64,000 nucleotides of DNA from Patescibacteria group bacterium (GCA_040389125.1 JAZKAN010000001.1:178737-242736), one strand, 5' to 3'. Positions 10,714 through 41,757 are shown, counted from the stretch's first letter. Notes: generated by a model from the letters alone, not told the origin. Numbers and translations are program-made.

Positions 10714-10781
10714 GAGGTGTACTAAATGTACATTGAGGGTTATTTTTTTAATTTTAACGCAGAAATCCGCTAAATTTGGAG
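10714..10781 (+). repeat. GUAC-hairpin element (family B/C), degenerate copy
   Basis: GAGGTGTAC-TAAAT-GTACATTGAGGG, then a T7 tract, then AACGCAGAAATCCG...GGAG. It shares the hairpin, AU tract, AACGCAGA and UCCG...GGAG tail with copies at 16210, 29786, 37828 and 41700. Lies just after the FKBP stop. Confidence 0.65.
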
Positions 10782-10785
10782 ATTT

Positions 10786-11253
10786 TTATTTTTCTACCTT
10801 TAGAAGCTGTACCTCAAAAATAAGTGTTGATCCTCCTGGTATCGGTCCGTAGTCGCTCATACCATATCCCATTTCTGGTGGCACAGAGAGTACTCGTGTA
10901 CCTCCCACCTTCATACCCACAATTCCTTTGTCCCACCCCTCGATCACTTGACCACCACCGAGCGTGAACTTGAGAGGTTCACCTCGAGCAACTGAACTAT
11001 CAAATACTTTGCCATCTACAAAATGTCCGACGTAGTGAACTGTTACGATACTTCCAACTGTGGCTTCATCACCTGTCCCTACTACCCTATCCTGAATTAA
11101 CAGATTTCCGATTGCACTCGTGTTCATTGATGTTTGTTGTGTGTTATTTGGACTAAATATAGAAAGTAAACCAGAACCAAAAATAAAAAAACCTGCAATT
11201 GCACAGAGTGATACTACAACTGCGATCCACTCATTTTTATCTAATTTTTTCAT
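10786..11253 (-). CDS. FKBP-type peptidyl-prolyl cis-trans isomerase, membrane-anchored
   Basis: VTVHYVGHFVDGKVFDSS...LGGGQVIEGWDKGIVGMKVGG FKBP core with an N-terminal TM helix. Confidence 0.85.
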   Translation of the reverse strand: MKKLDKNEWIAVVVSLCAIAGFFIFGSGLLSIFSPNNTQQTSMNTSAIGNLLIQDRVVGTGDEATVGSIVTVHYVGHFVDGKVFDSSVARGEPLKFTLGGGQVIEGWDKGIVGMKVGGTRVLSVPPEMGYGMSDYGPIPGGSTLIFEVQLLKVEK

Positions 11254-11337
11254 ACATATAGTATATGATGTGTAGAGAAGAATGTAAATAAAAATTCTGC
11301 AAGTTTCTAGAATAAAAGTATGGTATAGTATCTATTC

Positions 11338-12087
11338 ATGAAAAAGCCACAAAAAGTCAAAGTTGCCCCTGCACCACCTACAAATACATACCCAATGCGG
11401 ATCAATAAATACCTTGCTCACAAGGGTATCGCAACACGTACTGGTGTAGACGAGCTAATCAAATCGCACAAAATCCTCATAAATGGAAAAGTTGCTGTGC
11501 TCGGTGACAAAGTCGCGGAGACAGACAACGTAGAAGTACGTGGCACACACACCAAAAAGAAATATGTGTACTATGCGTACAACAAACCACAAGGTATTGT
11601 GAGTACAAATCCCCAAGGTGATGAAAAAGGTATTTTGGAAAATGTGAAATTACCGGTCAAAGTTTTCCCTGTCGGACGATTGGACAAGGAGTCACATGGT
11701 CTTATGATACTTACAAATGACGGTCGTGTTACAGACAGACTTCTCAATCCTATTTACAAGCACGAAAAAGAGTACATCGTCGAGGTGGATCGCAAATATA
11801 CTCCAGGATTTATGAAACATATGCAAGAAGGTGTTGAACTTTCAGATGGTATTACTAAACCTGCTGTATTTGAGAAAATTGATGAAACAACATTTAGCAT
11901 TATTTTGACCGAAGGTCGCAATCGTCAACTACGACGTATGACAGAAAAACTTGGCTATACGATACGTGACTTGCAACGTATCCGTGTACAAAATATTGAG
12001 CTCAAAACTGCACCGATTAATTCCTGTCGAGAAATCACCGGCACTGAGCGAGAGAAATTTTTGGAAGGTATTGGTTTAACTGCGTAA
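11338..12087 (+). CDS. rRNA pseudouridine synthase (RsuA/RluB family) with S4 domain
   Basis: S4-like N-terminus (INKYLAHKGIATR...KILINGKV) and catalytic VGRLDKESHGLMILTNDG. Confidence 0.85.
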   Translation: MKKPQKVKVAPAPPTNTYPMRINKYLAHKGIATRTGVDELIKSHKILINGKVAVLGDKVAETDNVEVRGTHTKKKYVYYAYNKPQGIVSTNPQGDEKGILENVKLPVKVFPVGRLDKESHGLMILTNDGRVTDRLLNPIYKHEKEYIVEVDRKYTPGFMKHMQEGVELSDGITKPAVFEKIDETTFSIILTEGRNRQLRRMTEKLGYTIRDLQRIRVQNIELKTAPINSCREITGTEREKFLEGIGLTA

Positions 12088-12125
12088 TTTTATTTTTTTA
12101 TTATTCGAGATACAATATATTTATT

Positions 12126-12869
12126 ATGGACAGACCACACAAACACGAAAATCAGCCAAAACCACTTACCAAACAAGAAATTCACGATGCAACCGTGGCT
12201 CGAGTTTCAGCAATAGACAAGGAATTCAACGATGGCTTTAATTTTATGAAGCATTACCCTCGCTCTGTCAGCATTTTTGGAGGAGTGCGTATTGCTGAAT
12301 CCGACCCCTACTACGCAATGGCACGATCGCTGGGTAGTCGTATAGTCAACGAACTCAACTACTCCGTATTTACCGGTGGCGGACCAGGTATTATGGAAGC
12401 AGCAAACCGAGGAGCGTTTGAGGCGGGCGGACAGTCACTTGGACTTACGATCGAACTTCCCTTTGAACAGCAGTCAAATCAGTATCTCACCAAGTTTCTT
12501 GATTTCTATTATTTCTTTAGCCGAAAAGTCTGTTTGCATTTCAGTGGCGAGGCATACGTATTTTTCCCAGGCGGGTTTGGAACGTTTGATGAATTTTTTG
12601 AAATTCTCACACTCGTTCAAACTGGTAAAATCGAGAAAGTTCCAATCATCCTTTTTGGTTCAGAATATTGGAATAAAGTTGATAACCTTATAAAAGAAAT
12701 TTTACTTTCGCGAAATGCTATTGATCCCACAGATGTCCATCTCTATAAAATTACAGATAACGAAGATGAGGTTATCGAGATAATCCGCAACGCACCAGTT
12801 CGCAATGGTCTCAAATTTGAACACGACGCGATTTACGGTCACCACCGTGTTGAGGATGCAAAGGAATAA
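12126..12869 (+). CDS. LOG family (TIGR00730) nucleotide-binding protein
   Basis: VSIFGGVRI...TGGGPGIMEAANRGA...PGGFGTFDEF motifs. Confidence 0.85.
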   Translation: MDRPHKHENQPKPLTKQEIHDATVARVSAIDKEFNDGFNFMKHYPRSVSIFGGVRIAESDPYYAMARSLGSRIVNELNYSVFTGGGPGIMEAANRGAFEAGGQSLGLTIELPFEQQSNQYLTKFLDFYYFFSRKVCLHFSGEAYVFFPGGFGTFDEFFEILTLVQTGKIEKVPIILFGSEYWNKVDNLIKEILLSRNAIDPTDVHLYKITDNEDEVIEIIRNAPVRNGLKFEHDAIYGHHRVEDAKE

Positions 12870-12878
12870 ATCCACGCT

Positions 12879-13097
12879 CTACTCCCCTTTTTGAATTTCT
12901 TTTTTGATTTCCTTAAATTCGTTTTCTATTTCTGAGAGTCGCTCACGAGATGCCTTGATCAGAGTCGCGCCTTCCTTTACATATTCGAGTCCTTTTTCCA
13001 CATCGAGTTCTGATTGCGATTCGAACCACGACACTATCTGAGATAGTTTTTTCAGAGTTTCATTTAAATTTGTTCCGTCCGTTGTTTTTTTTGTCAT
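12879..13097 (-). CDS. xseB: exodeoxyribonuclease VII small subunit
   Basis: 72-aa helical protein (LNETLKKLSQIVSWFES...LEKGLEYVKEG) immediately downstream of xseA. Confidence 0.85.
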   Translation of the reverse strand: MTKKTTDGTNLNETLKKLSQIVSWFESQSELDVEKGLEYVKEGATLIKASRERLSEIENEFKEIKKEIQKGE

Positions 13098-13115
13098 TGC
13101 GTTTGTATAGTTTTG

Positions 13116-14354
13116 TTAGAGCACTTTAGAAACTATTATACCGTCTGACACCAGAATATCAACTTCGGTCCCGTGTGGAGCATCAGCGATTTTCCGTATG
13201 ACCTTTCCACCACTCTGTACAATACTGTACCCTCGTGCTAGTTGTCTCTCGGGACTAGACATTTCGAGAGATTTTGCTGATTGTGACAAGACATCTCGAA
13301 CACGCGAAGTAATCCCCTCGAAACCACGTACAATTTCCTTTTCATTCCTCTGTATAGAATCCGAAATTCTGGCAATCTGAGTTTCAATACGTACGAGTGC
13401 ATGCAGGAGAGTCGTCTCCGCACGTTGAAATGTTTCAAACAACGCGACAAATCGTTTCTCGATTGAAATTTGGGAATTTTCTAAAATATATTGTGAGTCG
13501 CGTAATCCAGCCTGAAACTGTGACATAATTTTCTCCTCTGCGAGATGCACAGTCGCAAGAGCACTCATCCACGTCGAGTTAAGAAGTCCGGCAACAGCAG
13601 TCGGAGTCGAAACATTTTTGTCGGACACAAGTGATACGAGCGAAACATCTTTATCGTGACCAATGCCTGTAAGAACTGGTACAGGAAAATCAGCAACTGC
13701 CCGTACCAACATTTCATTGTTGAACGCCATAAATGATTCGAGTGACCCTCCACCCCGCATGATAACGAGCACATCAATATCTTTTTTTTGTAGTGTCTTG
13801 ATTGCCGAAAGCAAATCTTTGATTGCATCCTGCCCCTCAACTTTGGAATCGACAAAACTAATTTCATATCCAAATTTACCTATGTTGGTCAGAAAATCGT
13901 TTATCACCGCACCACTTTTAGATGTGATAACCCCGATGCGGGTCGGATAGTCAGGAATCATCCGTTTTCGCATTTCAGAAAATAATCCTTCGTCTTCTAG
14001 CTTTTTCCGGAGCACATCATATGCAATCTTCAGTGCTCCATCTCCGACCAGTTCTACGAGTTCAACTTGGAGAGTCAGTCCCCCGTTTGGTTTATATATG
14101 TTTGGGTATGCAGTTACGATAACCTCCATACCGTCGACGAGTGTCACACCGGAAATTTTGAAATCATTTTTCCACATAAAACATTTTATTGTACTACCAT
14201 CTTTGCTGTCTTTTATCGAAAAGTACAAATAGCTTCTGCCTTCGTACATTTGCACGCCAGAAATTTCTCCGATGATTTTAGCTCGCTCACCTTTTAGAGT
14301 AGCATTGAGAGAGTCGAGATATTTACTTACAGAAATGATATCTTTCGAATTCAT
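13116..14354 (-). CDS. xseA: exodeoxyribonuclease VII large subunit
   Basis: N-terminal OB fold and central VLVIMRGGGSLESFMAFNNE...TGIGHDKDVSL motif. Confidence 0.9.
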   Translation of the reverse strand: MNSKDIISVSKYLDSLNATLKGERAKIIGEISGVQMYEGRSYLYFSIKDSKDGSTIKCFMWKNDFKISGVTLVDGMEVIVTAYPNIYKPNGGLTLQVELVELVGDGALKIAYDVLRKKLEDEGLFSEMRKRMIPDYPTRIGVITSKSGAVINDFLTNIGKFGYEISFVDSKVEGQDAIKDLLSAIKTLQKKDIDVLVIMRGGGSLESFMAFNNEMLVRAVADFPVPVLTGIGHDKDVSLVSLVSDKNVSTPTAVAGLLNSTWMSALATVHLAEEKIMSQFQAGLRDSQYILENSQISIEKRFVALFETFQRAETTLLHALVRIETQIARISDSIQRNEKEIVRGFEGITSRVRDVLSQSAKSLEMSSPERQLARGYSIVQSGGKVIRKIADAPHGTEVDILVSDGIIVSKVL

Positions 14355-14366
14355 AGGGGTAGTATA

Positions 14367-14960
14367 TCAAAAATTTGTTCCACACACTCCATCTGCCCAA
14401 AGTCCAAGTTTTTGAACACGAGCATTGTCTTGTGCCTTTTTAAATTCCGTTTGAAATAGGTATGGTATGCGGTATGTGTATTCGTATGCGTACCCCTCTG
14501 CAACCATTACTTTATTTACAAATGTTCCGTCTGGCAGATACACGTATCGCAGGAGTCTCCCGTATTTATCACGATCTGTTTGCGTTTTATCTCCCTTCAG
14601 AAAAACCTCCATTCCTGTCACGAGTTGCTTCATCTTGTTCGATGCGTCTATACCAAAACACTGAACGGGTTTCCGTGGATCTACAGTCTCTGGTGTATTA
14701 ATTCCAATCAGTCGCACTTTTTCTTCAGCTCCATCATCCATAGTCACAACAATAGTATCCCCATCTATTACACGCACGACATCTACTACACCTGGAATGT
14801 GGTTGTGGACAGTGCTTGTTGCACTATTTTCTTCAATATCTATTACTCTAGGAACAACACTTTGAATTACCGTACCAGTTTGATTGATCTGTACACTCTC
14901 CCGCAGGTACAACAAAATCGCAATCGAAAGTAGTACAACCACAGTTGTTAATCTCTTCAT
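14367..14960 (-). CDS. thermonuclease (staphylococcal nuclease-like), secreted or anchored
   Basis: Signal/TM N-terminus and SNase core (VIDGDTIVV...RLIGINTPE...GRLLRYVY...AEGYAY). Confidence 0.85.
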   Translation of the reverse strand: MKRLTTVVVLLSIAILLYLRESVQINQTGTVIQSVVPRVIDIEENSATSTVHNHIPGVVDVVRVIDGDTIVVTMDDGAEEKVRLIGINTPETVDPRKPVQCFGIDASNKMKQLVTGMEVFLKGDKTQTDRDKYGRLLRYVYLPDGTFVNKVMVAEGYAYEYTYRIPYLFQTEFKKAQDNARVQKLGLWADGVCGTNF

Positions 14961-14970
14961 ATAAATGAAA

Positions 14971-15579
14971 TTAAAGTTCTGGCGTATTCTCTATTTTTGC
15001 TTTTCGAGTTTTAACAATATATTCAATCGCAGACGGGAGAACAGAAATAAACACAATGCCAACAATAATCGGGGTGAGATATGAAGTTGCATTTGGAATT
15101 GCTTTGCCCAAATAGAATCCGACTAGTGTCATCCCTCCGGCCCAAAACACTCCACCAATGAATGTGTAGCGAACGAATTTTTCATATTTCATTTTGGCAA
15201 TACCAGCGAGCGTCGGTGCGAAACTGCGTACTATCGGCACAAACCGACCAATAATAATCGTTTTTGCACCGTATTTATCAAAAAATTCCTGCGTATAATC
15301 AATGTATTTTTGTTTGAAATATTTAGAATCTTTTGTAAAAAATTTCTTCACTATGTAGTGACCGAGTGAGTAGCTAAATAGGTAGCCGAGAACCGCAGCA
15401 ATAAAAATAACAAGGATGAGAATGTCGATACGCAAAATTCCCTGCGATGCCAAAAATCCTGTTGTAAACAGGAGACTGTCGCCAGGCAGAAAAAGTGTCA
15501 GCGGAAATGACTCGAAAAATATGATGGCAAATAGACCAGGATAGCCAATTTTTTGTACCAGTGCGATGAGAGATTCCAT
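14971..15579 (-). CDS. DedA family membrane protein
   Basis: FFESFPLTLFLPGDSLLFTTGFLASQGIL DedA signature. Start at MESLIALVQKIGYPG; the ORF extension to 15741 runs through the GC-rich palindrome and is rejected. Confidence 0.85.
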   Translation of the reverse strand: MESLIALVQKIGYPGLFAIIFFESFPLTLFLPGDSLLFTTGFLASQGILRIDILILVIFIAAVLGYLFSYSLGHYIVKKFFTKDSKYFKQKYIDYTQEFFDKYGAKTIIIGRFVPIVRSFAPTLAGIAKMKYEKFVRYTFIGGVFWAGGMTLVGFYLGKAIPNATSYLTPIIVGIVFISVLPSAIEYIVKTRKAKIENTPEL

Positions 15580-15594
15580 GAGGGGTAGTATAGC

Positions 15595-16081: not shown

Positions 16082-16109
16082 AGATTACTCACAATTTCTG
16101 TTCTGTCAA
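16082..16109 (-). promoter_or_regulatory. sigma70-like promoter TTGACA-N16-TAATCT (minus strand)
   Basis: Minus-sense gttgaca gaacagaaattgtgag taatct, immediately downstream of the helicase terminator. Confidence 0.4.
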
Positions 16110-16141
16110 CAAAACAGCATACCATCTTTGGTATGCTGTTT
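16110..16141. terminator. bidirectional intrinsic terminator
   Basis: AAAACAGCATACC-ATCTTT-GGTATGCTGTTTTG. Perfect 9-bp stem flanked by A4 and T4. Confidence 0.65.
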
Positions 16142-16209
16142 TGTCATGATTGAATTCAAGAACTTTCATAATTTCGATGAGATCCGACGTTGAGAATTTG
16201 AAAATTCGA

Positions 16210-16266
16210 GGAGACGTACACGAGTACGTTGACGAGTATTTTTAAATCCGAAACTAGGAGATCGCG
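16210..16266 (+). repeat. GUAC-hairpin element (family B/C) copy
   Basis: GGAGACGTACAC-GA-GTACGTTGACGAGTATTTTTAAATCCGAAACTAGGAGATCGCG, immediately after the DEAD-box helicase stop. Nearly identical to the 37828 copy. Confidence 0.8.
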
Positions 16267-16278
16267 AAATTTGGAAGT

Positions 16279-17592
16279 TTATTCCACGAAGGTAAATGCT
16301 TTGCCCTTCTTGCCCGCTCTACCCGTTCTTCCGATTCGGTGAACATAGTCGTCGTATGTTGCAGGGATATCAAAGTTGATCACGTGTGAGACATCAGAAA
16401 TGTCGAGACCTCGAGCAGCAACGTCTGTCGCCACGAGTACCTGCGCCTTATTTTCCTTGAACTGTCTCAGTGCTCTTTCGCGTCCAGACTGGTTTTTATC
16501 ACCATGAATAGATTCGGCTTTGAATCCGCGACCATTGAGTAGTTGTGTAAGTTTTTCAACGCCATGTTTGGTCCGTCCGAAAATGAGAACTTTATTAAAG
16601 TCAGGTTGAATGAGCATGCTATGCAACACATCAAGTTTATTATCTCCGCGCTCCACTCGCACCACATCCTGGTCAACATTTTTTGATGTGTCCTGAGTTT
16701 TAACAGAAATAGTTACTGGATTTTTCAAGAAATCCTTGATGAGCACCTCGATTTCTCGAGAAAGTGTCGCAGAGAAAAACAGTGTGTGTCTCTCGGCTGG
16801 CATTTTGCTCATGAGCAGCTTCATGTCGTTAATAAATCCCATGTCGAGCATTCGATCAGCTTCATCGAGAACCACCGTTCGAAAATGTGAGAGGTTTAAA
16901 CATCCTCGTTCCACGAGATCCTTGATTCGTCCTGGCGTACCAATGACAAATTCATTGCGATATCGCAAATCGCGAATCTGCTTGCCGATCGGAGATCCTC
17001 CTACCGCACAGACAGAATATAGTTTCATACCCTTTGTAAAACCAACGAGCTCATCCTGAATCTGAGTCGCAAGTTCGCGAGTTGGAACCATGATGAGTAC
17101 GTTTGCTTTTGCATCAGAGAGTACTTTGTGAATAAGCGGAATGAGAAATGCCGCTGTTTTACCAGTACCTGTGTTTGCAATACCGACAACATCCTCTCCG
17201 CGAAGTACGTGTGGGATTGCGCGGTCCTGAATCGGAGTTGGGAGTGAATACCCTTTTCCTAAAATATTATTTTTTAAATTTTCATCAATAAGAAAATCAG
17301 CGAACTTGTGTTCAGGAACAAAGTTTTCAACTTGTTCTGTGATGACTGCCTTGCTGATAAATCGTGAGTGTTCGATGCGGTCGGTTTTGCCCCCGCCTCG
17401 TCCACCGCGACTTCCACCTCTGTTTCCTCCACTTGAAAATCCACGAGAGTTACCTCGTGATCCATATGTAGTTCGTGGAGCATGACTTGCACCACGTGTC
17501 GTAGCGTAATAGCCACCACTCGTACCTGTAGTTGTTCGAGATACAGGTCGTCTCGCCGCTCCTCGTGAGGAGCTGTATGATTTTGATTCCAT
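16279..17592 (-). CDS. DEAD-box ATP-dependent RNA helicase with C-terminal RG-rich tail
   Basis: Q-motif, GTGKTAAF (motif I), VLDEADRMLDMGF (DEAD), SAT, and HRIGRTGRAG (motif VI). Confidence 0.9.
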   Translation of the reverse strand: MESKSYSSSRGAARRPVSRTTTGTSGGYYATTRGASHAPRTTYGSRGNSRGFSSGGNRGGSRGGRGGGKTDRIEHSRFISKAVITEQVENFVPEHKFADFLIDENLKNNILGKGYSLPTPIQDRAIPHVLRGEDVVGIANTGTGKTAAFLIPLIHKVLSDAKANVLIMVPTRELATQIQDELVGFTKGMKLYSVCAVGGSPIGKQIRDLRYRNEFVIGTPGRIKDLVERGCLNLSHFRTVVLDEADRMLDMGFINDMKLLMSKMPAERHTLFFSATLSREIEVLIKDFLKNPVTISVKTQDTSKNVDQDVVRVERGDNKLDVLHSMLIQPDFNKVLIFGRTKHGVEKLTQLLNGRGFKAESIHGDKNQSGRERALRQFKENKAQVLVATDVAARGLDISDVSHVINFDIPATYDDYVHRIGRTGRAGKKGKAFTFVE

Positions 17593-17778
17593 TTTATTAT
17601 TACCTGAGGCTTTTAGAATAAAGTCTCGTAAGTTCGGGGAGAAATATAAAGCGGATACCGCTCGGAAATCTCTAGGATTTAAAGCAAAAGCCTCAAAAAC
17701 AAACTAGTGAGAATGACTCAAGTAACTACTACTATATACTACCTGCCATTTTCTGTCAAGGATTGTGGAAAATGGTGC

Positions 17779-17807
17779 TTGACAATCTATATGGAGTATG
17801 CTATACT
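17779..17807 (+). promoter_or_regulatory. consensus sigma70 promoter TTGACA-N17-TATACT
   Basis: cttgacaatctatatggagtatgctatact, ~90 nt upstream of the LysM gene start. Confidence 0.55.
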
Positions 17808-17898
17808 ATACACAGACTTGTTAAATTTGTTCAGTAATCCGCTAGGCGGGTTGGGGCAGGTTTGGCAAGAGAATGCTCGTTGTAAAAGGAAAGCTCGA

Positions 17899-19056
17899 AT
17901 GAAAACGACTGCTTGCATGATCGTAATGCTTGCGTTGCTTCTCGGGGCGGTCATGCCCCTCGCGGCGCAGGAAGAAAGAAATGATCCGGACGTTTATGTC
18001 GTGATGCCAGGCGACTCTGCCTGGTCAATCTCGGGCGACGTCTTCCACAACCCCCTCCTCTGGAGGCAGGTGGTGGAAAAAAATCCGTTCTTGAAAGCAA
18101 AGGGGCGGATTACGGTTAACGAGAAGAACGGGTGGACATATGTCATGCTACACCCCGGCGAGCAACTGTTTGGACTTGCAGAATTAGGAATTCTGCCCAA
18201 GCAGGTGCCACTTTCCGAACTCGGGATCAAGATTCCCGACCCGGTCGTGATCAATCAAGTGTCAAATTGGACTTGGTTCATTCTCGGCTTGGCACTACTG
18301 CTACTCATCGCGGCCTACCTCATTTATCGGATGCTTACCCGAGATCCGGTAAACTCGAGGCAGGCGATGATGCCTGGCGGAGTTACCGACACGACAGCAC
18401 CAACAGTAATGCAACAGGTTGCTGCTCGGGCTGCCGGATACACTCGTCCAGTCTCGACCAACTCGGCAATCTATCAGCAGTTCACGATCGTCCGTCAAAC
18501 CGCCGGTCGTATCTGGGGCAACATGACAGTTAGTTATGCGGATGGCCGCTCGATTCCTCGTCGCCTTTCCGGTGAACGAGCGTACCAAGCGGAAGTTCGT
18601 TTCCCTGATGGTCACACCGAGACCCTGTACATGTTGCAGGGATGCGGAAATGACCTGCGTATGGGTGGCATCTCGCGTTATCTGCCTGGTCCAGAATTCC
18701 GGTTCGAGGCAGACCCCGCGCCGGTTGTTCCGCCAGCTACCGTTCCGATCGCTGAGACTCCGACCTCTGCACCCGCAGAGGCACCGGCTCCGGTGGTTGA
18801 ACCTGTCGCAACTCCTCAAGTAACAGCCCTTGCACAACCGGAAATCAATCGTAGCGGAGAATTTATCCGCTCGAAAGATGCTCCGGCAGTCGCAAGTGGC
18901 AGCGGAATCGTCAAGCTGGAAATCCGGCGTGCATCATTCGATAATCCTGCCATGCTTCGCATGAGCGGCATCGATGAAAAAGCCGACACCACGTGCGAAG
19001 TGGAGGAAGGGATGGTAACATTCCGATTCACTCCGAAGCACCACAACAGCAATTAG
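17899..19056 (+). CDS. LysM-like domain membrane protein, GC-rich
   Basis: Signal peptide MKTTACMIVMLALLLGAVMPLAAQ. LysM-like segment YVVMPGDSAWSISGDVF...LHPGEQL, a central TM helix, and a Pro/Ala-rich C-terminus. GC is about 55-57% against ~40% background. The ORF to 17707 is an over-extension. Confidence 0.6.
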   Translation: MKTTACMIVMLALLLGAVMPLAAQEERNDPDVYVVMPGDSAWSISGDVFHNPLLWRQVVEKNPFLKAKGRITVNEKNGWTYVMLHPGEQLFGLAELGILPKQVPLSELGIKIPDPVVINQVSNWTWFILGLALLLLIAAYLIYRMLTRDPVNSRQAMMPGGVTDTTAPTVMQQVAARAAGYTRPVSTNSAIYQQFTIVRQTAGRIWGNMTVSYADGRSIPRRLSGERAYQAEVRFPDGHTETLYMLQGCGNDLRMGGISRYLPGPEFRFEADPAPVVPPATVPIAETPTSAPAEAPAPVVEPVATPQVTALAQPEINRSGEFIRSKDAPAVASGSGIVKLEIRRASFDNPAMLRMSGIDEKADTTCEVEEGMVTFRFTPKHHNSN

Positions 19057-29715: not shown

Positions 29716-29785
29716 TTATACCTCACAAATACAACTAAAACGAATCAAATTGCCTCAGATGCTAGGCCTGTAAGATTTTGAGAGT

Positions 29786-29844
29786 GAGCCGTACTTAGTG
29801 GTACGGTGAATGATCAAAATTGAAACACAACAACGCAGATGAGG
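29786..29844 (+). repeat. GUAC-hairpin element (family B/C) copy
   Basis: GAGCCGTAC-TTAGTG-GTACGGTGA...AACGCAGATGAGG, located between the FNR-like stop and the msrA start. Confidence 0.8.
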
Positions 29845-29858
29845 TAATTTTATTCGTT

Positions 29859-31370
29859 TTAGGCAAAACCTGGGAAAAAGTCGATCTTGATATGCTTAAC
29901 TCCCATTTGTTTTAATGTTTTTTCAAACATAGCGACCATACTATGCGGCCCTGATATATAAAATTGTCGTTCTGCAAAATCTGGAATTTCCGCACGTATC
30001 ATGTCTGCAGTAATAAATCCCTTGCGAAATGAGGGCGGAAGTTCACTCGGCACATCGTCAGTAACTGCATATACCGTGCGAATATCGAGCGTCTCCTCTG
30101 CTATATCAAATATATCTTTGTATGCAATATCCTGCATCGTGCGATTTGAATACAGCATGACCACATCACGTTTTTCTTTCATATCAATCATGTATTTGAC
30201 CATGCTACGAAACGGTGTGACTCCGATACCACCTGCAATGAAAACTAGTTTCTGTGTTGTATCATGTGGCAATGTGAAATTTCCGGCGAGTTGTGATGCT
30301 ATGATAGTGCCTCCTGTTGGAATCTGTCCGAGTGCTAGTTTGAAACTACTCGACTGTTCGTAAAATTTGATACCGAGACGAATATCACTTTCTGTCGGGG
30401 ATGATGATAGAGTAAAATATCTACGGTTACCGCGCGTATCCATATTGTCGTGACCAAGTGTCCACTCCATGTATTGTCCAGGTCTATACGGAAAACGTTT
30501 TTCTAATGTAAACACAAATTCATCTGTATCTTTTGCTATTTCCTTTTTATCTTTTAGAGTCAAAATCGTTCTAATCTTTGGGCTGACTATATACGAAAAA
30601 ATATTTCCAAGAATAAGTGCAAGTTGTGGTGTTGAATACACTGATCCAATATGAAACTGGAGTCCAAAAAGTACACCAACAATACCACCATATACCACCT
30701 GTAAATTCAGTGATGGAGGAGTGGTGAGAGGTTCAGTAAGCATGACTGCGCCGAAAAAGACAATTGGTCCTGAGAACAGAATACTATTTAGAATTTCTAA
30801 AACTGGTATTCCGTATGTAAGACCGGTAATAGTAGAAACAATAATCGCTGGGATAAAGAAACTAAAAAAAAGTGTGAATCTGCGAGTTTTGCGAAGTGTG
30901 AGAAGTCCCAACACAGTGACAACTGGAAGCAGAACGCTACTACCAACCCACCATGAAAATCCAGTTACACCAAATATTCCCAGGAGAACAATACTAATCG
31001 CAACAGGATTAAAAATATGTTTCCGGTTAATATTAAAAATATATTTTGAACCCATCGCGAGCACCCCAACAACTATGTATAACAAAATATCCGAGTATGT
31101 AGTGAGTGGTGTCAATATAAAAAACAAAATAATGCCCGTAATCCACTCTGACTCAGCATTGCGTGGCACACCGAGAAATAATGCAAAGAGTTTGTTTGAT
31201 AAGTAACACACTGCGAAAATCAAAACGAGAGAATACAGGAGGTGTAAACCACTAAATGTGAGTATACCAAGAAATCCAAAAACGATTGAAATCAGTGCAA
31301 GAATACAGAGGCTATAGAGAGCAACTCTATACATAGTAATCTTATTTAAAAAGGTATCTATTGGATTCAT
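29859..31370 (-). CDS. polytopic membrane protein fused to an FNR-like FAD/NAD(P)-binding oxidoreductase domain
   Basis: About 8 TM helices in the N-terminus. The C-terminus has RRYFTLSS (RxY[ST] FAD motif) and LVFIAGGIGVTPFRSM (NAD-binding GGxGxxP). No His set for heme. Confidence 0.75.
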   Translation of the reverse strand: MNPIDTFLNKITMYRVALYSLCILALISIVFGFLGILTFSGLHLLYSLVLIFAVCYLSNKLFALFLGVPRNAESEWITGIILFFILTPLTTYSDILLYIVVGVLAMGSKYIFNINRKHIFNPVAISIVLLGIFGVTGFSWWVGSSVLLPVVTVLGLLTLRKTRRFTLFFSFFIPAIIVSTITGLTYGIPVLEILNSILFSGPIVFFGAVMLTEPLTTPPSLNLQVVYGGIVGVLFGLQFHIGSVYSTPQLALILGNIFSYIVSPKIRTILTLKDKKEIAKDTDEFVFTLEKRFPYRPGQYMEWTLGHDNMDTRGNRRYFTLSSSPTESDIRLGIKFYEQSSSFKLALGQIPTGGTIIASQLAGNFTLPHDTTQKLVFIAGGIGVTPFRSMVKYMIDMKEKRDVVMLYSNRTMQDIAYKDIFDIAEETLDIRTVYAVTDDVPSELPPSFRKGFITADMIRAEIPDFAERQFYISGPHSMVAMFEKTLKQMGVKHIKIDFFPGFA

Positions 31371-36943: not shown

Positions 36944-36953
36944 ATGAATACGC

Positions 36954-36995
36954 AAATAGCACATCCAGTTTACTCGGGATGTGCTATTTGTTTTC
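36954..36995 (+). terminator. intrinsic terminator
   Basis: AAATAGCACATCC...GGGATGTGCTATTTGTTTT. Overlaps the EVE gene 3' end. Confidence 0.65.
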
Positions 36996-37445
36996 TGACA
37001 TTTTCAAAATAGTGTCAAAATGCCTTTTGAGTACCGGCTGTACAGACAATCTACTGCCCCGCTGGACCAGCATCATGTCATCCAAATCACGAGAAAATCT
37101 AATCTGTGGTAGTGTGACAGGATTCTTAAATTTACTGACAAATTTTATATCAACACACATCCACATTGGATTTTCGATGGTTGATTTTGGATCAAAATGA
37201 TCATTACTCGTATCGAGAGCCGTAGTGTCTGGGTGTGGCAGACTGGCAACCTCAGCAACTCCAACCACACTCGGTGGATTTCCACCCGAGTGATAAAACA
37301 ATACTGGATCACCTATTTTCATCGAGTCACGCATAAAATTCCGTGCCTGATAATTACGAATCCCAGTCCATGCTGTTTTCTTGTCTTTTTTCAGATCATC
37401 TATCGAATAGCAATCCGCTTCACTTTTTACGAGCCAGTAATTCAT
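36984..37445 (-). CDS. EVE (PUA-like) domain protein
   Basis: MNYWLVKSE...GIRNYQARNFMRDSMKIGDPVLFYHS EVE-domain signature. Confidence 0.8.
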   Translation of the reverse strand: MNYWLVKSEADCYSIDDLKKDKKTAWTGIRNYQARNFMRDSMKIGDPVLFYHSGGNPPSVVGVAEVASLPHPDTTALDTSNDHFDPKSTIENPMWMCVDIKFVSKFKNPVTLPQIRFSRDLDDMMLVQRGSRLSVQPVLKRHFDTILKMSENK

Positions 37446-37477
37446 ACCATTTTATTTTATCATATGATATTCAGTAA

Positions 37478-37747
37478 TTATTTTTTAGAAGGAAACGTAT
37501 ACCCTTCAGCAAGAAGGATCTGCCTTTTTCTTTCTACTCCGCCACGGTTGTATCCACCCATACCACCGTCCGAACGCACTACTCTGTGACACGGAATATC
37601 CGGAGCAAAGTTTGCTTTCATAATACTCCCTACTGCTCGCGAGGCACCTGGACTCCCCGCCTTTGTCGCGACCTGTTTGTATGTCAAAACTTTTCCCTTA
37701 GGAATCTTCCTCACAATATTTTTAACTTTTTGAGTGAAGGTAAACAT
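37478..37747 (-). CDS. methylated-DNA-protein-cysteine methyltransferase DNA-binding domain protein (MGMT/Ogt C-terminal domain only)
   Basis: PCHRVV active-site motif within a ~89-aa protein. HTH YKQVATKAGSPGASRAVG. Confidence 0.8.
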   Translation of the reverse strand: MFTFTQKVKNIVRKIPKGKVLTYKQVATKAGSPGASRAVGSIMKANFAPDIPCHRVVRSDGGMGGYNRGGVERKRQILLAEGYTFPSKK

Positions 37748-37827
37748 GTTCCATATTAATTAACTTATATTTGTTTTCTAGAACTGACGTAGATGGATGA
37801 AATCCGCGAAGGGAGAGGAAAATAATT

Positions 37828-37885
37828 GGAGACGTACACCGGTACGTTGAGAATTATTTTCTGAATTCCGACAAAGGAGTTCGCC
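37828..37885 (+). repeat. GUAC-hairpin element (family B/C) copy
   Basis: GGAGACGTACAC-CG-GTACGTTGAGAATTATTTTCTGAATTCCGACAAAGGAGTTCGCC. It is flanked by a 20-nt outer inverted repeat (tctagaactgacgtagatgg / ccatctactaagttctag, 37777-37901). Confidence 0.8.
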
Positions 37886-37901
37886 ATCTACTAAGTTCTA
37901 G

Positions 37902-38468
37902 CTAGTATTTCCGTATCACCCCCTTCACAATCGCCGCCACCTTGAGTTCGTATTGTGGATAGATGGGTCTGTAATTTTTATTTGCCGGTAAAAGATAAAT
38001 CTTGTCACCTTTTTTCTTGTAGTATTTCATTGTCCAACCCCCATCAACCTCGGCGATAACAATGTCTCCATCTCGTGGGTTACCACGACGCTCTGCTATG
38101 ACCAAATCCCCCTCCTTTATTCCCTCGTCAATCATGGAATCACCTTTAACTTCGAGAAGATATGTGGATTCTTTGTTCCGAACAAGATATTCATCTAGAT
38201 TGAGTGTATTCGATCTATCCTCGTCAACTGTTGTTGGGAATCCTGCCTCAACCAGTCCCAGAAGTGGCAAATCATTGTATGTATTTTCTGGTATTAATTT
38301 ACCCTTTGAATCCTTGCTCACGACACCCTCCTCGATAAGTTTGTTGACGAGTTTGTATACAGCATTTTTAGACTTGAATCCCAGAATCGTCATGATCTCT
38401 GCATATCCAGGCATACGACCATTTCGTTTGTAGAATCCGAATATTTTGTTTTTGTATTCTATACTCAT
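37902..38468 (-). CDS. lexA: LexA repressor
   Basis: N-terminal wHTH and a C-terminal S24 peptidase domain with GDSM and IVIAEVDG. Confidence 0.9.
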   Translation of the reverse strand: MSIEYKNKIFGFYKRNGRMPGYAEIMTILGFKSKNAVYKLVNKLIEEGVVSKDSKGKLIPENTYNDLPLLGLVEAGFPTTVDEDRSNTLNLDEYLVRNKESTYLLEVKGDSMIDEGIKEGDLVIAERRGNPRDGDIVIAEVDGGWTMKYYKKKGDKIYLLPANKNYRPIYPQYELKVAAIVKGVIRKY

Positions 38469-38484
38469 AGTATGAATTATTTCA

Positions 38485-38694
38485 TTATAGAACAAATGTT
38501 GAAACGAGTTTGAGAGGCCTACCAAACCAACCTGATCTAGTCGCAGGACGGAGTGTCGAAAGCTGTGTCACCAGGAATTTGTGTCGGCGTGCCTCGCGCG
38601 CATATGACAGACCTTTTATTATTTTCAGGTCAATTTGTTCGTTCAAAATCTCTATTTCTTTGCGAACTGTTTTTTCTAATGTATTTTTGCTCAT
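38485..38694 (-). CDS. hypothetical small ORF upstream of lexA
   Basis: MSKNTLEKTVRKEIEILNEQIDLKIIKGLSYAREARRHKFLV..., overlapping the putative SOS box. Weak support. Confidence 0.2.
   Translation of the reverse strand: MSKNTLEKTVRKEIEILNEQIDLKIIKGLSYAREARRHKFLVTQLSTLRPATRSGWFGRPLKLVSTFVL
38490..38501. promoter_or_regulatory. putative SOS box (Cheo-box-like GAAC-N4-GTTG)
   Basis: agaacaaatgttga lies 22 nt upstream of the lexA start, with one mismatch to GAAC-N4-GTTC. Confidence 0.4.
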
Positions 38695-38993
38695 GGTGTA
38701 TTTTGTTAACTTGTTAGATACAGTATAGGTGAACGAGTGTTCACCAGTCAAGAAAATTTGGTGTGGATAGTGGAGTCAGAAACAAAAAATTCCTTCACGC
38801 AAGTGGTGATGGAATTTAATGTGTTAATCAAAGGGTAATTTAGGAATTATTTCTTTGGTTTTTTTGCTTTCTTTTTTTCTTTTTTGTGTGTTTCTCCTTT
38901 TGCCATATAAAATATTTTAATTAATAATGCATTCAAATTCGCACACTTAAATTATATCATGAAGAGAAATTAAAATGCCATGAAGATTTTAAC

Positions 38994-39332
38994 TTATGCA
39001 TCAATTTTTGCTGCGAGAATAAAATCATTGTTGGAAAGTCCACCAATCGCATGTGTTGTCAGAACTATCGTAACATATTTGTATTCTGTCAGATGAATAT
39101 CTGGGTGATGACCCTCGTCCTCAGCGATTTCTGCAACTTTGTTCACAAATTCGATTGCTGAAGCAAAATCTCTAAATTCGTATTTACGACTGATACTTGC
39201 GTAATCACTTGCAAGTTCCCAGTCTGGAATATGTTTCAAAAGAATCTCTGCATCATCACGAACAATAGGATCCACACCCCCTTCACACGGTACGCATTTT
39301 TGTTCTGTAAGATTAATTTCAGTTTCGTCCAT
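38994..39332 (-). CDS. pterin-4a-carbinolamine dehydratase (PCD/DCoH)
   Basis: EGHHPDIHLTEYKYVTIVLTTHAIGGLS motif. Confidence 0.85.
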   Translation of the reverse strand: MDETEINLTEQKCVPCEGGVDPIVRDDAEILLKHIPDWELASDYASISRKYEFRDFASAIEFVNKVAEIAEDEGHHPDIHLTEYKYVTIVLTTHAIGGLSNNDFILAAKIDA

Positions 39333-39377
39333 AAATATATTTAATTAATATAGTATATCATGCAAAAAGCATTCTCC

Positions 39378-41054
39378 TTACTCTAGAAATAATCGTGCGA
39401 GACGAATTTTCAGATACGATGGATTTTTCTTTTTCTTCTGGAGAAAATAATACACCGGTGCGAGACTCGTTGCTTTGGTTTTTTCAAACGCAGACAAAAT
39501 TTCATCGAGTTCACTCCGTTTGAACTCGCGACGTAGATATGCAATATCCGGACATGCATCCTTGTCTTCTTCCATCAATTTCTCAATATGTGATACAATC
39601 GTCTCCGCTTTAAGTCCACGGAGTTTGGCGATTTCATCGAGTGGAATTTCATCTCTGAGCAAATCCGCTGTAATTTGCTCCGTCGATTTTTTCATTTCTT
39701 TTTCTTTCTTTTTGATTCTCACTTTTTCCTCTGGCTCTATCGTTTTTATATATGCATTTTGTCGTGCGGTGATTTCGGATCGTGACATAGTTTTCAAATC
39801 CTCCACTGCATCCACTGACATATCTCGAAACTCTCTATCACGCTCCAAAACTTCCGCGTCAACTTCAAGTGACAAGTCGTTGAATCCTAGAAGTTTCATC
39901 CCACCGAGTGACCGCACCCGAGAGAGTGCCACATATCCCATTCCCTTTACAAACGATTTTGACAAATCCAATTCCATAGCATCGAGTGACATTCCCTGAC
40001 TTTTGTGGACCGTAATAGCCCAGGCAAGTCGCAGTGGAAGCTGGCTTATTTCTGCTTTTGTTTTACCTTCCTCCTCGATTTTCCATGACTGTGCAGAAAC
40101 ATGGAATACCTGTCCGCTCGTAGTACGCACCACTGGATCGCCAAATGTATTGAAATCCGTCACCACTCCGAGTGTTCCATTTACATATCCGCCCTCCATA
40201 TGATTTTTGGTAAACATAACTCTGGCACCAATTTTGAGTTCCAAAATTTCTGGCGACAGACAACTTTTCTTGAGTGAGTCTGCAATATAGCTCGAACCCT
40301 TCCACGCCATCGTATATTTTTTTGCATTTCCCGATACCAAACTCAAATGTTGTTTGTTGATACCATCCACGTCTATATTGTGCGTAAAAAGTTTGGTGGG
40401 TTCCACACCTGATTCTGGATCTTTATTAAATCTCGATTTCAAGAGATCAATTGTATTCTGCGTGACTGCATTTTCACGAATCTGATTTAAAATAGATAGA
40501 TATGTATTATCTTTTTGACGATGTTGTTCGGACAAGTGACATATCGTGAGATTTGCTCGCTCCCAGCTATCTGCCTTGTAGGCGAATTCGGACTCGACCA
40601 CCTCACCGCGCGTCACCGGCGGAAGCTGAAAAAAGTCACCACAAAGAATGACTTGCATTCCACCAAAGGGTCGCTCGGATCGTTTGAACTGCCGACAAAT
40701 CCACTCGATCAGATCGAGTCGGTAGTGGTGTAGCATTGACACCTCGTCTATAATCAGAACTTTTGTCCGATCAAAACGCTTGTACAAATACTGCCGCTCC
40801 ATGAGATCTTCGATGTCGTAATCAGTGAGAGTACTACGTACACCAAGTCCCGACCACGAGTGTATCGTCATACCACCGAGATGTGTTGAAGCGATGCCAG
40901 TAGACGCGGTTACAGCCACATCCACCGCATGTGATTTGAGGTATTTGATATATTCATTGAGAACATACGTTTTACCACTCCCGGCCGGTCCAGTGAGAAA
41001 GACATTTTTGCCAAGTTTCAAAATATCGAGCGCTTCGGATTGCAACATGTTCAT
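39378..41054 (-). CDS. PIF1/RecD-like SF1 DNA helicase with C-terminal extension
   Basis: GPAGSGKTYVL (motif I), VLIIDEVSMLHH (motif II), ILCGDFFQLPPV, and UvrD_C-like SQGMSLD. About 150-aa extra C-terminal domain. Confidence 0.85.
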   Translation of the reverse strand: MNMLQSEALDILKLGKNVFLTGPAGSGKTYVLNEYIKYLKSHAVDVAVTASTGIASTHLGGMTIHSWSGLGVRSTLTDYDIEDLMERQYLYKRFDRTKVLIIDEVSMLHHYRLDLIEWICRQFKRSERPFGGMQVILCGDFFQLPPVTRGEVVESEFAYKADSWERANLTICHLSEQHRQKDNTYLSILNQIRENAVTQNTIDLLKSRFNKDPESGVEPTKLFTHNIDVDGINKQHLSLVSGNAKKYTMAWKGSSYIADSLKKSCLSPEILELKIGARVMFTKNHMEGGYVNGTLGVVTDFNTFGDPVVRTTSGQVFHVSAQSWKIEEEGKTKAEISQLPLRLAWAITVHKSQGMSLDAMELDLSKSFVKGMGYVALSRVRSLGGMKLLGFNDLSLEVDAEVLERDREFRDMSVDAVEDLKTMSRSEITARQNAYIKTIEPEEKVRIKKKEKEMKKSTEQITADLLRDEIPLDEIAKLRGLKAETIVSHIEKLMEEDKDACPDIAYLRREFKRSELDEILSAFEKTKATSLAPVYYFLQKKKKNPSYLKIRLARLFLE

Positions 41055-41122
41055 ATTGTATCAGTACTTTGCCCAACTTGACAAATATCCACTTTGGGTG
41101 TATGATAGTGGAGGAGAAAAAG

Positions 41123-41371
41123 ATGCCCTTAATAAAAGACGATGCGCGGAGAGACTGGTTGTTGTTTCTTCTTTTAATGTTGGCGATCGGAGCAGGAATT
41201 TTTGCCTGTATTACCAACGACAAAGTTTTTTTCATATTCGCCCTCGGAACTGGAATTTTTCTACTGGTGCTCGGAATCCTAATACTCGGGCCTCGACCCG
41301 ATCACAGCCCGGTAATGAAGGAACTCATTCAGAAAACTCTCGAGTTCGAGAGAAAGCCCGACTCCCAGTAA
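41123..41371 (+). CDS. hypothetical small membrane protein
   Basis: RBS GGAGGAG upstream of the ATG and two TM helices. Confidence 0.45.
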   Translation: MPLIKDDARRDWLLFLLLMLAIGAGIFACITNDKVFFIFALGTGIFLLVLGILILGPRPDHSPVMKELIQKTLEFERKPDSQ

Positions 41372-41390
41372 TGGGGTCGGGTTTACGTTT
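41356..41390 (+). terminator. intrinsic terminator
   Basis: GCCCGAC...GTCGGGTTTACGTTTT. Confidence 0.5.
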
Positions 41391-41446
41391 TATATTTGTA
41401 TAGTGACAAAATTTTTTAATGTAGTAGTGTTACAAACGGAGGAGTC

Positions 41447-41689
41447 ATGTTTACATTTTTCGCATTTGCAGTTCTTGGTCTCGTCAACCTACAAAAGGAT
41501 GACGGGGGAGGTTCACACAAGAAGAGAAACTACTGGATCCTGATCCTGAAAATCGTTGGGTCCTGCATAGCGAGTTGGCTACTTATGCAGTTTATCATAG
41601 CATCACATCATAGCACCGTACTCGAAAGAGTCGGTGCTTTCATTTGTATTGCTCAAAGAATTTTTGCTCAAGGTCAAGGCGAAGTTTGA
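41447..41689 (+). CDS. hypothetical small membrane protein
   Basis: RBS GGAGGAG 4 nt from the ATG and two TM helices. Confidence 0.45.
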   Translation: MFTFFAFAVLGLVNLQKDDGGGSHKKRNYWILILKIVGSCIASWLLMQFIIASHHSTVLERVGAFICIAQRIFAQGQGEV

Positions 41690-41699
41690 AAAAGGCGAG

Positions 41700-41757
41700 G
41701 AGCCGTACTTAGTGGTACGGTGACGAGAATTTTTTAAACTTCAACGCAGAGATTGAG
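41700..41757 (+). repeat. GUAC-hairpin element (family B/C) copy
   Basis: GAGCCGTAC-TTAGTG-GTACGGTGACGAGAATTTTTTAAACTTCAACGCAGAGATTGAG, located between convergent genes. Confidence 0.8.

Follow-up and report, generated by a model that had tools for sequence, protein, structure and literature searches.

What is the element that follows a gene five times, always in the same orientation, within 64 kb of a single bacterial genome? The stretch in question (the window: the whole 64,000 nt that were analysed, with positions counted from the first letter) belongs to a member of the Patescibacteria (Minisyncoccia/Parcubacteria), and a reading made from its sequence alone had described five hairpins with a common core downstream of minus-strand genes. 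Our analysis indicates that each site is probably one copy of a non-autonomous interspersed repeat of about 125 nt, similar to repetitive extragenic palindromes (REPs), their doublets (REPINs) and miniature transposable elements with inverted repeats (MITEs), which is mobile or selfish and is also a gene-end hairpin. We favor this reading on the grounds of dispersed copies, a centre and loops that are conserved across phyla and set in covarying stems, a fold confined to one strand, turnover in a sister genome, insertion into structured RNAs, and other repeats nested in the element.

Five long hairpins abut stop codons in the window

We scanned both strands of the window with a regular expression for the hairpin apex, TCANYGTAC-N4-6-GTACRNCTC in the minus-strand reading (GAG-N-YGUAC-loop-GUACR-N-UGA on the plus strand). 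Exactly five matches were obtained, all of them intergenic and in one orientation, against 0.0003 expected by chance at the base composition of the window, and the claim of five co-oriented copies with a common core was thereby borne out. Complementary middle and outer arms are present in all five copies, and each unit is an imperfect hairpin of 125-128 nt with a single rod fold, which fills its spacer and abuts or overlaps a stop codon. The copies are given below together with their scores under R1, a covariance model that was built from 40 foreign copies (other phyla) and contains no window sequence; the minus-strand open reading frames (ORFs) whose stop codons adjoin them follow.

10662-10789, plus strand: c1, 128 nt, between the FKBP stop codon (10786-10788) and the tgt start (10641); R1 52.8 bits, E=1.9e-12, positions 1-128
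16158-16284, plus strand: c2, 127 nt, after the DEAD-box helicase stop codon (16279-16281), boxes degenerate; R1 22.2 bits, E=5.7e-4, full length
29735-29862, plus strand: c3, 128 nt, after the FNR-like stop codon (29859-29861) and upstream of msrA; R1 71.1 bits, E=1.7e-17
37778-37902, plus strand: c4, 125 nt, after the Peptidase_S24 (LexA-like) stop codon (37902-37904), boxes degenerate; R1 45.7 bits, E=1.8e-10
41648-41775, plus strand: c5, 128 nt, after the ABC exporter stop codon (41775-41777); R1 44.6 bits, E=3.5e-10
10786-11253, minus strand: FKBP ORF
16279-17592, minus strand: DEAD helicase ORF
29859-31370, minus strand: NAD_binding_1/FNR-like ORF
37902-38525, minus strand: Peptidase_S24 ORF
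41775-43553, minus strand: ABC exporter ORF

The sequence-only reading had thus named the right neighbors (FKBP, DEAD helicase, FNR-like, LexA-like and ABC exporter), while the intervals that it gave for the full element cover the apex and one arm only. At full length the copies do not begin 10-80 nt after the stop codon, and the outer inverted repeat that had been restricted to the copy at 37.8 kb is found in five of five. Nor is the element an RNA feature of about 60 nt in the 3' untranslated region of minus-strand genes, as had been supposed: the unit is about 125 nt long, the better-folding plus strand is antisense to those genes, and orientation is mixed elsewhere.

From base to apex, the element consists of an outer stem, a purine-rich internal loop, a middle stem, a GAG/UGA platform, the CGUAC/GUACG stem and a loop of 4-6 nt. 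The internal loop, which is conserved, places 5' CNAGGC opposite 3' AACGNNG; the platform is made of tandem G.A/A.G and G.U pairs (GAG.../...UGA), and the apex stem has 5 bp. The corresponding features of the window copies, all on the plus strand, are these:

10714-10736, plus strand: c1 apex, GAG-G-UGUAC-uaaau-GUACA-U-UGA, a compensated U-A pair replacing C-G
16211-16232, plus strand: c2 apex, GAG-A-CGUAC-acga-GUACG-U-UGA
29786-29809, plus strand: c3 apex, GAG-C-CGUAC-uuagug-GUACG-G-UGA, the same as the c5 apex at 24/24 nt
37829-37850, plus strand: c4 apex, GAG-A-CGUAC-accg-GUACG-U-UGA
41700-41723, plus strand: c5 apex, GAG-C-CGUAC-uuagug-GUACG-G-UGA
10689-10694, plus strand: c1 5' box, CAAGAC (family consensus C-N-A-G-G-C)
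10756-10762, plus strand: c1 3' box, AACGCAG
29762-29767, plus strand: c3 5' box, CTAGGC
29832-29838, plus strand: c3 3' box, AACGCAG
41675-41680, plus strand: c5 5' box, CAAGGC
41743-41749, plus strand: c5 3' box, AACGCAG
16185-16190, plus strand: c2 5' box position, degenerate, CGACGT, aligned by the model
16252-16258, plus strand: c2 3' box position, degenerate, AACTAGG, aligned by the model
37804-37809, plus strand: c4 5' box position, degenerate, CCGCGA, aligned by the model
37870-37876, plus strand: c4 3' box position, degenerate, GACAAAG, aligned by the model

The reported variation of the closing pair (C:G in two copies, A:U in two, G:U in one) is real, and holds on the plus strand only. 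The motif AACGCAGA proved to be a true conserved box, AACGCAG being kept across the whole family; the supposed conserved tail 'UCCG...GGAG' turned out to be the degenerate box plus the outer arm of c2 and c4. The window copies are about 56% identical pairwise, with outer arms alike only between c1 and c2, and their flanks differ, which shows that they are not remnants of one duplicated segment.

The family extends across phyla

When R1 was run on the window, its matches were exactly the five copies, at full length and with E between 5.7e-4 and 1.7e-17; the rest of the 64 kb gave none. Outside the window many further copies were found, as the sequence-only reading had anticipated. A scan of GTDB, taking one genome per species, with the pattern TCAACGTAC-N4-6-GTACG-N-CTC yielded at least 120 loci, from Nitrospira, Clostridia, Syntrophomonas, Syntrophales, Desulfobacterales, Rokubacteria, Acidobacteria, Planctomycetes, Omnitrophota, Sporomusa and others. 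The long-hairpin architecture is common to nearly all of the GTDB matches listed, L017 and L095 being examples of exceptions. In metagenomes the C:G apex variant gave at least 120 loci of 36-72% GC with the same architecture, which is seen in more than 240 loci overall, Patescibacteria included. Scanning the loci with R1 revealed extra copies, up to 4 per 8 kb (L039).

On the strand that carries GAGG at the foot of the apex (the plus strand in the window), the consensus reads: outer stem (often CAGGCUGNUCAAAAAGG...), C-N-A-G-G-C, a middle stem of 15-19 nt, GAGGCGUAC-loop-GUACGUUGA, middle stem, (C)AACG-N-N-G, outer stem. About 40 conserved nucleotides are thus set in covarying helices, the apex being the most conserved part and the arms the variable one. 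Termini are common to the Nitrospira copies, unlike those of the window, and the arm of the c3 subfamily, ATAAAATTACCTCATCTGCGTTG, recurs in the unrelated metagenome loci L248, L149, L157 and L196. The existence of this cross-phylum family supports the earlier judgement that the hairpins are a conserved repeated element and not generic terminators.

Known families and collections gave no match. At the gathering score, Rfam annotated only a tRNA in the window and nothing at the element in 16 foreign loci, and at E<=10 it reported nothing relevant on the window region or on a canonical copy. Full-text searches with the motif strings returned primer and small interfering RNA noise only; in the literature on repeats in Nitrospira, Patescibacteria and related taxa we found no description of the element, an absence that is no proof of undescribed status; and the architectures in papers on REPs, CGTC-tagged REPs, TIRYTs and HUH nucleases differ from it. 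By blastn, a canonical copy had no match in plasmids and a Clostridia copy none in phages. Four pattern matches in IMG/VR were taken as chance, since they have no hairpin context and at least one (L130) lies within a long ORF. Phage and plasmid collections are essentially free of the element.

The fold covaries and belongs to one strand

RNAalifold on the 40 seed sequences predicted 22 pairs, 13 of them with compensatory changes. As an independent set we took 59 distinct metagenome copies from outside the R1 training. In an alignment fitted to the model, and hence favoring the structure, standard pairs occupied 91.7% of cells, compared with 70.9% in column shuffles and 26-38% with slid partners; double changes occurred in 16 of the 22 pairs, with a covariation score of 0.518 vs 0.149. 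Copies that had not been selected on the apex contain compensated apex stems such as TGTGC/GCACA and TATAC/GTATA. The compensatory changes expected of a larger alignment are therefore abundant. Watson-Crick pairs number 35-41 within and 21-32 across copies in the window, and 34.5 vs 24.4 outside it: self-complementarity is copy-specific.

RNA folding energies on the plus and minus strands, in kcal/mol, were -47 (z=-9.1) and -43.2 for c1, -44 and -27.6 for c2, -54.6 and -40.2 for c3, -54.6 and -41.4 for c4, and -53.1 and -39.6 for c5, with plus-strand z-scores of -5.7 to -9.1 for the window copies. The GAGG strand was the more stable in 156 of 160 non-redundant copies, by a mean of 11.5 kcal/mol, and it still folded better in 138 of the 160 when the apex was swapped for a neutral hairpin. 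With DNA parameters the plus strand is again favored in all five window copies, by only 0.1-3.7 kcal/mol.

The source of the asymmetry can be seen in the mismatches. On the GAGG strand these are purine.purine in 932 cases and pyrimidine.pyrimidine in 105, and G.T outnumbers A.C by 299 to 218. The apex helix is extended on this strand by two G.U pairs and tandem G.A/A.G pairs (GAG/UGA), which on the other strand become A.C and pyrimidine mismatches. The search fixed the 5' A; its closing partner, which was left free, proved to be C 108 times, T 10 times, G once and A twice, so that G.U or A-U pairs form on the GAGG strand only. A non-Watson-Crick pair of the boxes also covaries: 57 copies combine CNAGG[C] with [A]AC and 15 combine CNAGG[A] with [G]AC, against 1 and 3 copies in the off-diagonal C/A vs A/G combinations (Fisher p=4e-12). 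We conclude that the fold belongs to one strand, the GAGG strand, which is the plus strand of the window. The loop is 4, 5 or 6 nt long in 20, 41 and 60 copies, respectively, and this variation, together with the asymmetry of the conserved flanks, makes a double-stranded binding site, one of three roles suggested earlier, unlikely.

Presence differs between relatives, and other repeats nest in the copies

The genome GCA_040384245.1 is syntenic with the window (tgt 92% and Pif1 91% identical), and this sister has no element at any of the three comparable sites (c1, c3 and c4). Its c1 site is a 65-nt spacer with an ordinary small terminator; its c3 site is a 27-nt spacer, about 18 nt of which resemble the gene-proximal arm of c3; its c4 site, read directly from the L126 sequence, is a 9-nt spacer. 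R1 found no match in 23 kb of the sister genome, either with default filters (L121) or with filters off (L123). Since the c3 arm recurs in unrelated metagenome loci, it belongs to the element, and the sister c3 site is a deletion remnant. Presence or absence of the element is thus polymorphic between close relatives, with gain or loss both possible at c1 and c4. Two other explanations of these sites were rejected: outer arms as inverted host flank, proposed from the likeness of the c3 arm to the sister spacer, given the presence of that arm in unrelated metagenome loci; and insertion into the loops of pre-existing terminators, which does not hold for c3 and c4 as the sister spacers of 27 and 9 nt contain no hairpin. 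The window genome (Logan L122, L124) and the 91-92% sister (L121, L123, L126) occur in the same sequencing run, SRR26324622.

Two copies lie within known RNA genes. In L007 a TPP (thiamine pyrophosphate) riboswitch (4614-4849, minus strand; RF00059, 54.4 bits) contains a complete element (4679-4803, minus strand) in sense orientation, inserted at the P3 tip, where it adds 135 nt. In Sporomusa ovata DSM 2662 (L057, 2570-8000) the rRNA operon runs 16S-5S-23S, with an element in sense in the 5S-23S spacer (4893-5017, plus strand), where it would be part of the pre-rRNA. Such positions, and others between convergent genes, make the attenuator role put forward for the window copies unlikely as well. 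An apparently orthologous case of the TPP riboswitch is seen in L032, from a related Desulfuromonadales genome.

Other repeats lie within the element. A second Nitrospira repeat of about 45-55 nt (TTTTCACCCGCCCAaCCC plus a GGCGCG...CGCGCC hairpin) is nested in either arm (5' or 3') or in the apex loop of the following copies:

L079, 946-1120: element with nested Nitrospira repeat
L061, 7431-7631: element with nested Nitrospira repeat
L060, 2413-2538: element with nested Nitrospira repeat
L054, 2335-2457: element with nested Nitrospira repeat
L063, 2123-2240: element with nested Nitrospira repeat

In the Desulfobacteraceae genome Eth-SRB2, a small hairpin, TTTATCCCGCCTATGTTTGGCGGGGGAG, interrupts the region of the 3' box in two copies (L010 2691-2816 and L068 576-700).

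Neighboring genes were compared by all-against-all ORF clustering of 120 and then about 245 loci, with Pfam annotation of recurrent clusters and of unannotated window ORFs. The neighbors are unrelated housekeeping families, among them histidine kinases, ABC transporters, sigma factors, tRNA synthetases, SSB, RecA, ClpP and EF-P. No RAYT gene was seen in the window or among recurrent neighbors (64 kb of genome; loci of 8-14 kb). Relative to flanking genes the element is antisense to both in 32 cases, in sense with both in 22, between convergent genes in 17 and between divergent genes in 6. GC skew on the GAGG strand is negative at 106 loci and positive at 68 (p=0.005), and adjacent copies are co-oriented in 16 of 22 two-copy loci.

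Several neighborhoods deserve a separate record. A 449-aa ORF in the window (17707-19056, plus strand) has a Pro/Ala-rich C-terminal half, no Pfam match and a composition atypical for this AT-rich genome, and stands at the switch from minus- to plus-strand genes. Between the Pif1 helicase and c5, about 600 nt (41055-41650) are devoid of minus-strand ORFs; two small plus-strand ORFs (41069-41371 and 41447-41689) lie here with a terminator between them, and the sister has one such ORF (L126 128-388). In L180 (940-2179), an unrelated groundwater contig of 51% GC, a DEAD-box helicase 62% identical to that of the window is followed by an element oriented as c2, which could be coincidence or an old shared insertion. 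An AT-rich metagenome contig with the element (L203) carries a recA split by an intein with a LAGLIDADG endonuclease domain (2673-4838, plus strand), and in L090 a TD-2 RNA (5799-5888, plus strand; RF03162, 65.4 bits) lies 113 nt from the element (apex 5664-5686).

Element ends and insertion site

Element ends were placed from position histograms and an analysis of canonical termini; unrestricted arm alignment over-extended the units (median 181 nt) and was discarded. In the canonical GC-rich copies (28 distinct) the palindrome ends as G-CAGG...CCTG-C. On the 3' side of the GAGG strand, TAG comes next in 21 of these 28 (CTAG in 10, TTAG in 4), and the other side has no CTA to match. When the opposite (TCAA) strand of 141 sequence clusters is read, a TA[AG] peak lies 50-54 nt upstream of the apex, and AT-rich clusters show a mirror YTA peak downstream of the apex. 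On the same side the window copies have CTAG, CTAA, CTAA, ATAA and ATAA, which contain the TAA/TAG stop codons of the upstream genes. TA is present on both sides in four of the five, although, being self-complementary, it is indistinguishable from one more base pair.

Predicted role at gene ends

On the gene-sense strand, c1 has a middle stem, AAAAAAATAACCC/GGGTTATTTTTTT, that resembles a bidirectional terminator (A7...T7). T tracts follow the middle stem on this strand in c1 (T7), c5 (T5), and c2 and c4 (T4), whereas c3 has only a T4 after the outer stem; the statement that no clean U tract follows was thus mistaken for c1 and c5. In the family consensus, A4-5 and U4-5 tracts bracket the hairpin. 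The conserved A/U tracts and the replacement of an ordinary terminator at c1 suggest that the copies may act as terminators, in one or both directions, or as 3'-end hairpins. Scans with promoter and terminator consensus patterns gave counts close to those of shuffles. Ordinary bidirectional terminators, with an A tract, a GC-rich stem and a T tract, occur in the window at 16096-16156, 41354-41384 and 62911-62971, and lack the family motif; that at 41354-41384 has a conserved counterpart in the sister (L126 116-150).

How the element may spread

As a mobile repeat, the element would be selfish DNA that spreads by way of a single-stranded GAGG-strand intermediate, either DNA or, less likely, RNA; DNA is favored because the fold is confined to one strand although copies lie in mixed orientation with respect to genes. 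In this strand, the conserved loops and apex would be the recognition site for an enzyme acting in trans, for which an HUH/Y1 nuclease of the RAYT/IS200-IS605 type (PMC6006769) is a candidate by analogy. Insertion would occur with fixed polarity next to a (C/A)TA(G/A) tetranucleotide, and a preference for such TAR-containing sites would explain why all five window copies come right after TAA/TAG stops in one orientation. At its landing site the element would then behave as an intrinsic terminator, possibly bidirectional, or as a 3'-end protector.

Several of our findings weigh against this reading. No transposase, HUH nuclease or reverse transcriptase was found in the window, and none recurs beside about 250 copies; without a linked enzyme, the mobilizing agent is pure inference. 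We caught no fresh insertion with clean boundaries: the sister c3 site is clearly a deletion, c1 and c4 could be deletions in the sister instead of gains in the window genome, and the window copies, at only about 56% identity, do not come from a recent burst. The skew bias of 106:68 is far weaker than that reported for IS200/IS605 elements. The strand asymmetry, 4-16 kcal/mol with RNA parameters against 0.1-3.7 with DNA parameters, fits RNA at least as well as single-stranded DNA. Finally, AT-rich copies have TAR...YTA at both ends, as a DDE transposase that duplicates TA could also leave, and neither c3 nor c4 has a good U tract.

A more far-reaching proposal can be made only tentatively, namely that this is an uncatalogued, ancient, cross-phylum non-autonomous element, whose folded single strand with its fixed non-canonical features (tandem G.A, G.U, the covarying C.A/A.G pair and the CNAGGC/AACGNNG loop) is handled by a widely distributed enzyme beyond the REP/RAYT, IS200 and IS630 pairings, or passes through an RNA intermediate. 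The larger asymmetry under the RNA energy model may keep an RNA form open; were an RNA intermediate true, the element would be a bacterial retro-element similar to short interspersed nuclear elements (SINEs), or a new widespread structured RNA.

The element could instead be a structured non-coding RNA, a small RNA (sRNA) gene family or cis-acting module that works as the GAGG-strand transcript, with loops and the G.A/G.U platform as binding surface and the copies as gene copies. Conserved non-canonical pairs flanked by covarying helices are typical of functional RNAs, RNA parameters give a much larger asymmetry than DNA parameters do, and both copies within known RNA genes (riboswitch P3 and rRNA spacer) are in sense. 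We nevertheless consider this unlikely: copies reach 4 per 8 kb, the element fills whole spacers and leaves no room for a promoter, all five window copies are antisense to their neighbors with mixed orientation elsewhere (32 antisense/antisense, 22 sense/sense), the 91-92% sister lacks it at three of three sites, other repeats are nested in it, and no Rfam family matches even at E<=10.

Ranked with it, and likewise improbable in our view, is a MITE of a DDE transposase of the IS630/Tc1-mariner type, in which a pair of long terminal inverted repeats, the arms, would be bound in double-stranded form, insertion would go into TA (preferably CTAG) and duplicate it, and the hairpin as such would serve no function. 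TA, CTAG or CTAA are indeed found at element ends, TA flanks the inverted repeat on both sides in four of five window copies, and the empty site reconstructed for c3 is GCC-TAG. The canonical termini, CAGG...TCAAAAAG, presumably resemble Tc1/mariner ends. Insertion of IS630 into TA within CTAG has been reported (references cited in PMC2170065). A strand-specific excess of G.T and purine.purine mismatches, with 156 of 160 copies folding better on one strand, is however unexpected for double-stranded inverted repeats. The arms differ between copies of one genome while each copy is self-complementary, the centre and not the termini is most conserved, canonical copies have CTAG on one side only and no TA on the other, and there is no DDE transposase beside about 250 copies.

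That the copies are ordinary intrinsic terminators, alike by convergence or local duplication, is very improbable. Their position at gene ends, the A and T tracts that bracket the stems and the replacement of the sister's ordinary terminator by c1 would agree with it, but it is contradicted by the cross-phylum family, which keeps the 9-nt flank-plus-stem motif and both boxes at GC contents from 36% to 72%, as well as by a chance expectation of 0.0003 in the window, by ordinary terminators there without the motif and by flanks that differ between copies. Least credible of all is an operator for a dimeric DNA-binding regulator at the apex palindrome CGTAC-N-GTACG, which offers palindromic half-sites, a c4 copy next to a Peptidase_S24 gene and what we take to be a likeness to the cyanobacterial/Gram-positive LexA boxes RGTAC-N3-DGTWC, yet is contradicted by a spacing that varies from 4 to 6 nt (20, 41 and 60 copies) and a stem that covaries (e.g. 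TGTGC/GCACA, TATAC/GTATA), and also by asymmetric conserved flanks (GAG vs TGA), sites at 3' ends and not at promoters, and the same motif in phyla with different LexA boxes.

If the mobile repeat is confirmed, it would offer a handle for finding its mobilizing enzyme by phyletic-profile correlation, and a marker of a sequence that confounds the annotation of terminators, sRNAs and riboswitches and at which contigs break. It would also mean that tiny, streamlined genomes of the candidate phyla radiation (CPR) gain or lose 125-nt gene-end hairpins, with likely effects on termination and operon structure.

Comparison with known systems

Of the three roles first suggested, REP-like is the closest. 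Like REPs and bacterial interspersed mosaic elements (BIMEs), and like REPINs, which are served by RAYT (TnpA-REP, HUH/Y1), the copies are short, extragenic, high-copy palindromes situated mainly after genes or between convergent genes; they form one-strand hairpins with a conserved unpaired tag at the hairpin foot, are diverged within a genome and encode no internal transposase. The distribution is of the REP type: the window's 64 kb hold 5 copies and an 8-kb locus as many as 4, copies lie between convergent genes 17 times and between divergent genes 6 times, and all window copies follow stop codons. Side roles of REPs in termination and mRNA stability have been proposed (PMC3733652, PMC6006769). 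The GT[AG]G tag of REPs is not found at the hairpin foot, which reads GAG(G/A/C) on the plus and TCA(A/C) on the other strand; in some lineages a G[C/T]AG is found, within the 3' outer arm only. A REPIN consists of two inverted REPs with conserved distal parts and a variable spacer, whereas the element is one hairpin of about 125 nt with the apex most conserved. REP/RAYT pairs are lineage-specific, whereas this motif crosses many phyla and no RAYT gene was seen in the window or among recurrent neighbors.

CGTC-tagged REPs (Di Nocera et al. 2013, PMC3733652) come near in other respects: the gene-sense 5' box of the element, CTGCGTT or GCGTCGTT, is a CGTY motif beside a stem, and those REPs have no known dedicated transposase and are often arranged so as to form a large hairpin. 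They have stems of 8-9 bp, loops of 4-5 nt and a CCA tail, each being self-palindromic (PMC3733652). In the element, by contrast, neither arm forms a palindrome by itself, and the CGTY box serves as an internal loop within one long hairpin.

With IS200/IS605 elements and their miniature derivatives (PATEs), which move as single-stranded DNA, the element would share a strand-specific folded DNA as substrate, and it shares conserved non-canonical interactions and a cross-phylum distribution. A tetranucleotide flanks one end in IS200/IS605, TTAC in the case of IS608, which makes no target duplication (PMC6006769); in canonical copies of the element, CTAG/TTAG is likewise one-sided. Those elements carry two separate subterminal hairpins of 20-25 nt in place of one long one, and the element has a weak skew bias (106:68) and no TnpA or TnpB gene found nearby.

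MITEs such as RUP, Correia/NEMIS and ERIC/IRU are 100-130 bp long, near-palindromic and intergenic, give RNA hairpins and carry terminators, as the element would. RUP and Correia have TA at their ends. Those families are restricted to a genus or family and conserve their termini, whereas the element has a cross-phylum centre, covarying arms and strand specificity, and the outer arms of the window copies differ instead of sharing the conserved termini of a DDE-mobilized MITE.

Integron attC sites are imperfect palindromes of 57-141 nt that are recognized as a folded single strand, with structure conserved over sequence and unpaired features that give strand selectivity, and in these properties the element is similar. 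They differ in having paired R boxes (RYYYAAC/GTTRRRY) and a variable tip, whereas here an internal loop brings the invariant AAC opposite C-N-A-G-G and it is the tip that is conserved; the copies are also dispersed singly, with no cassette arrays and no integrase nearby.

The element thus lacks the defining features of GTAG-tagged REPs/REPINs, CGTC REPs, attC sites and classical MITEs. Small palindromic repeats (REPs, REPINs, MITEs) are usually confined to a lineage, and their mobilization is understood for few families. Here a single recognizable structured element, with no linked gene, extends from Patescibacteria to Nitrospira, Clostridia, Acidobacteria and Deltaproteobacteria, and it is unusual both for this phylogenetic breadth and for its RNA-like pattern of conserved non-canonical pairs.

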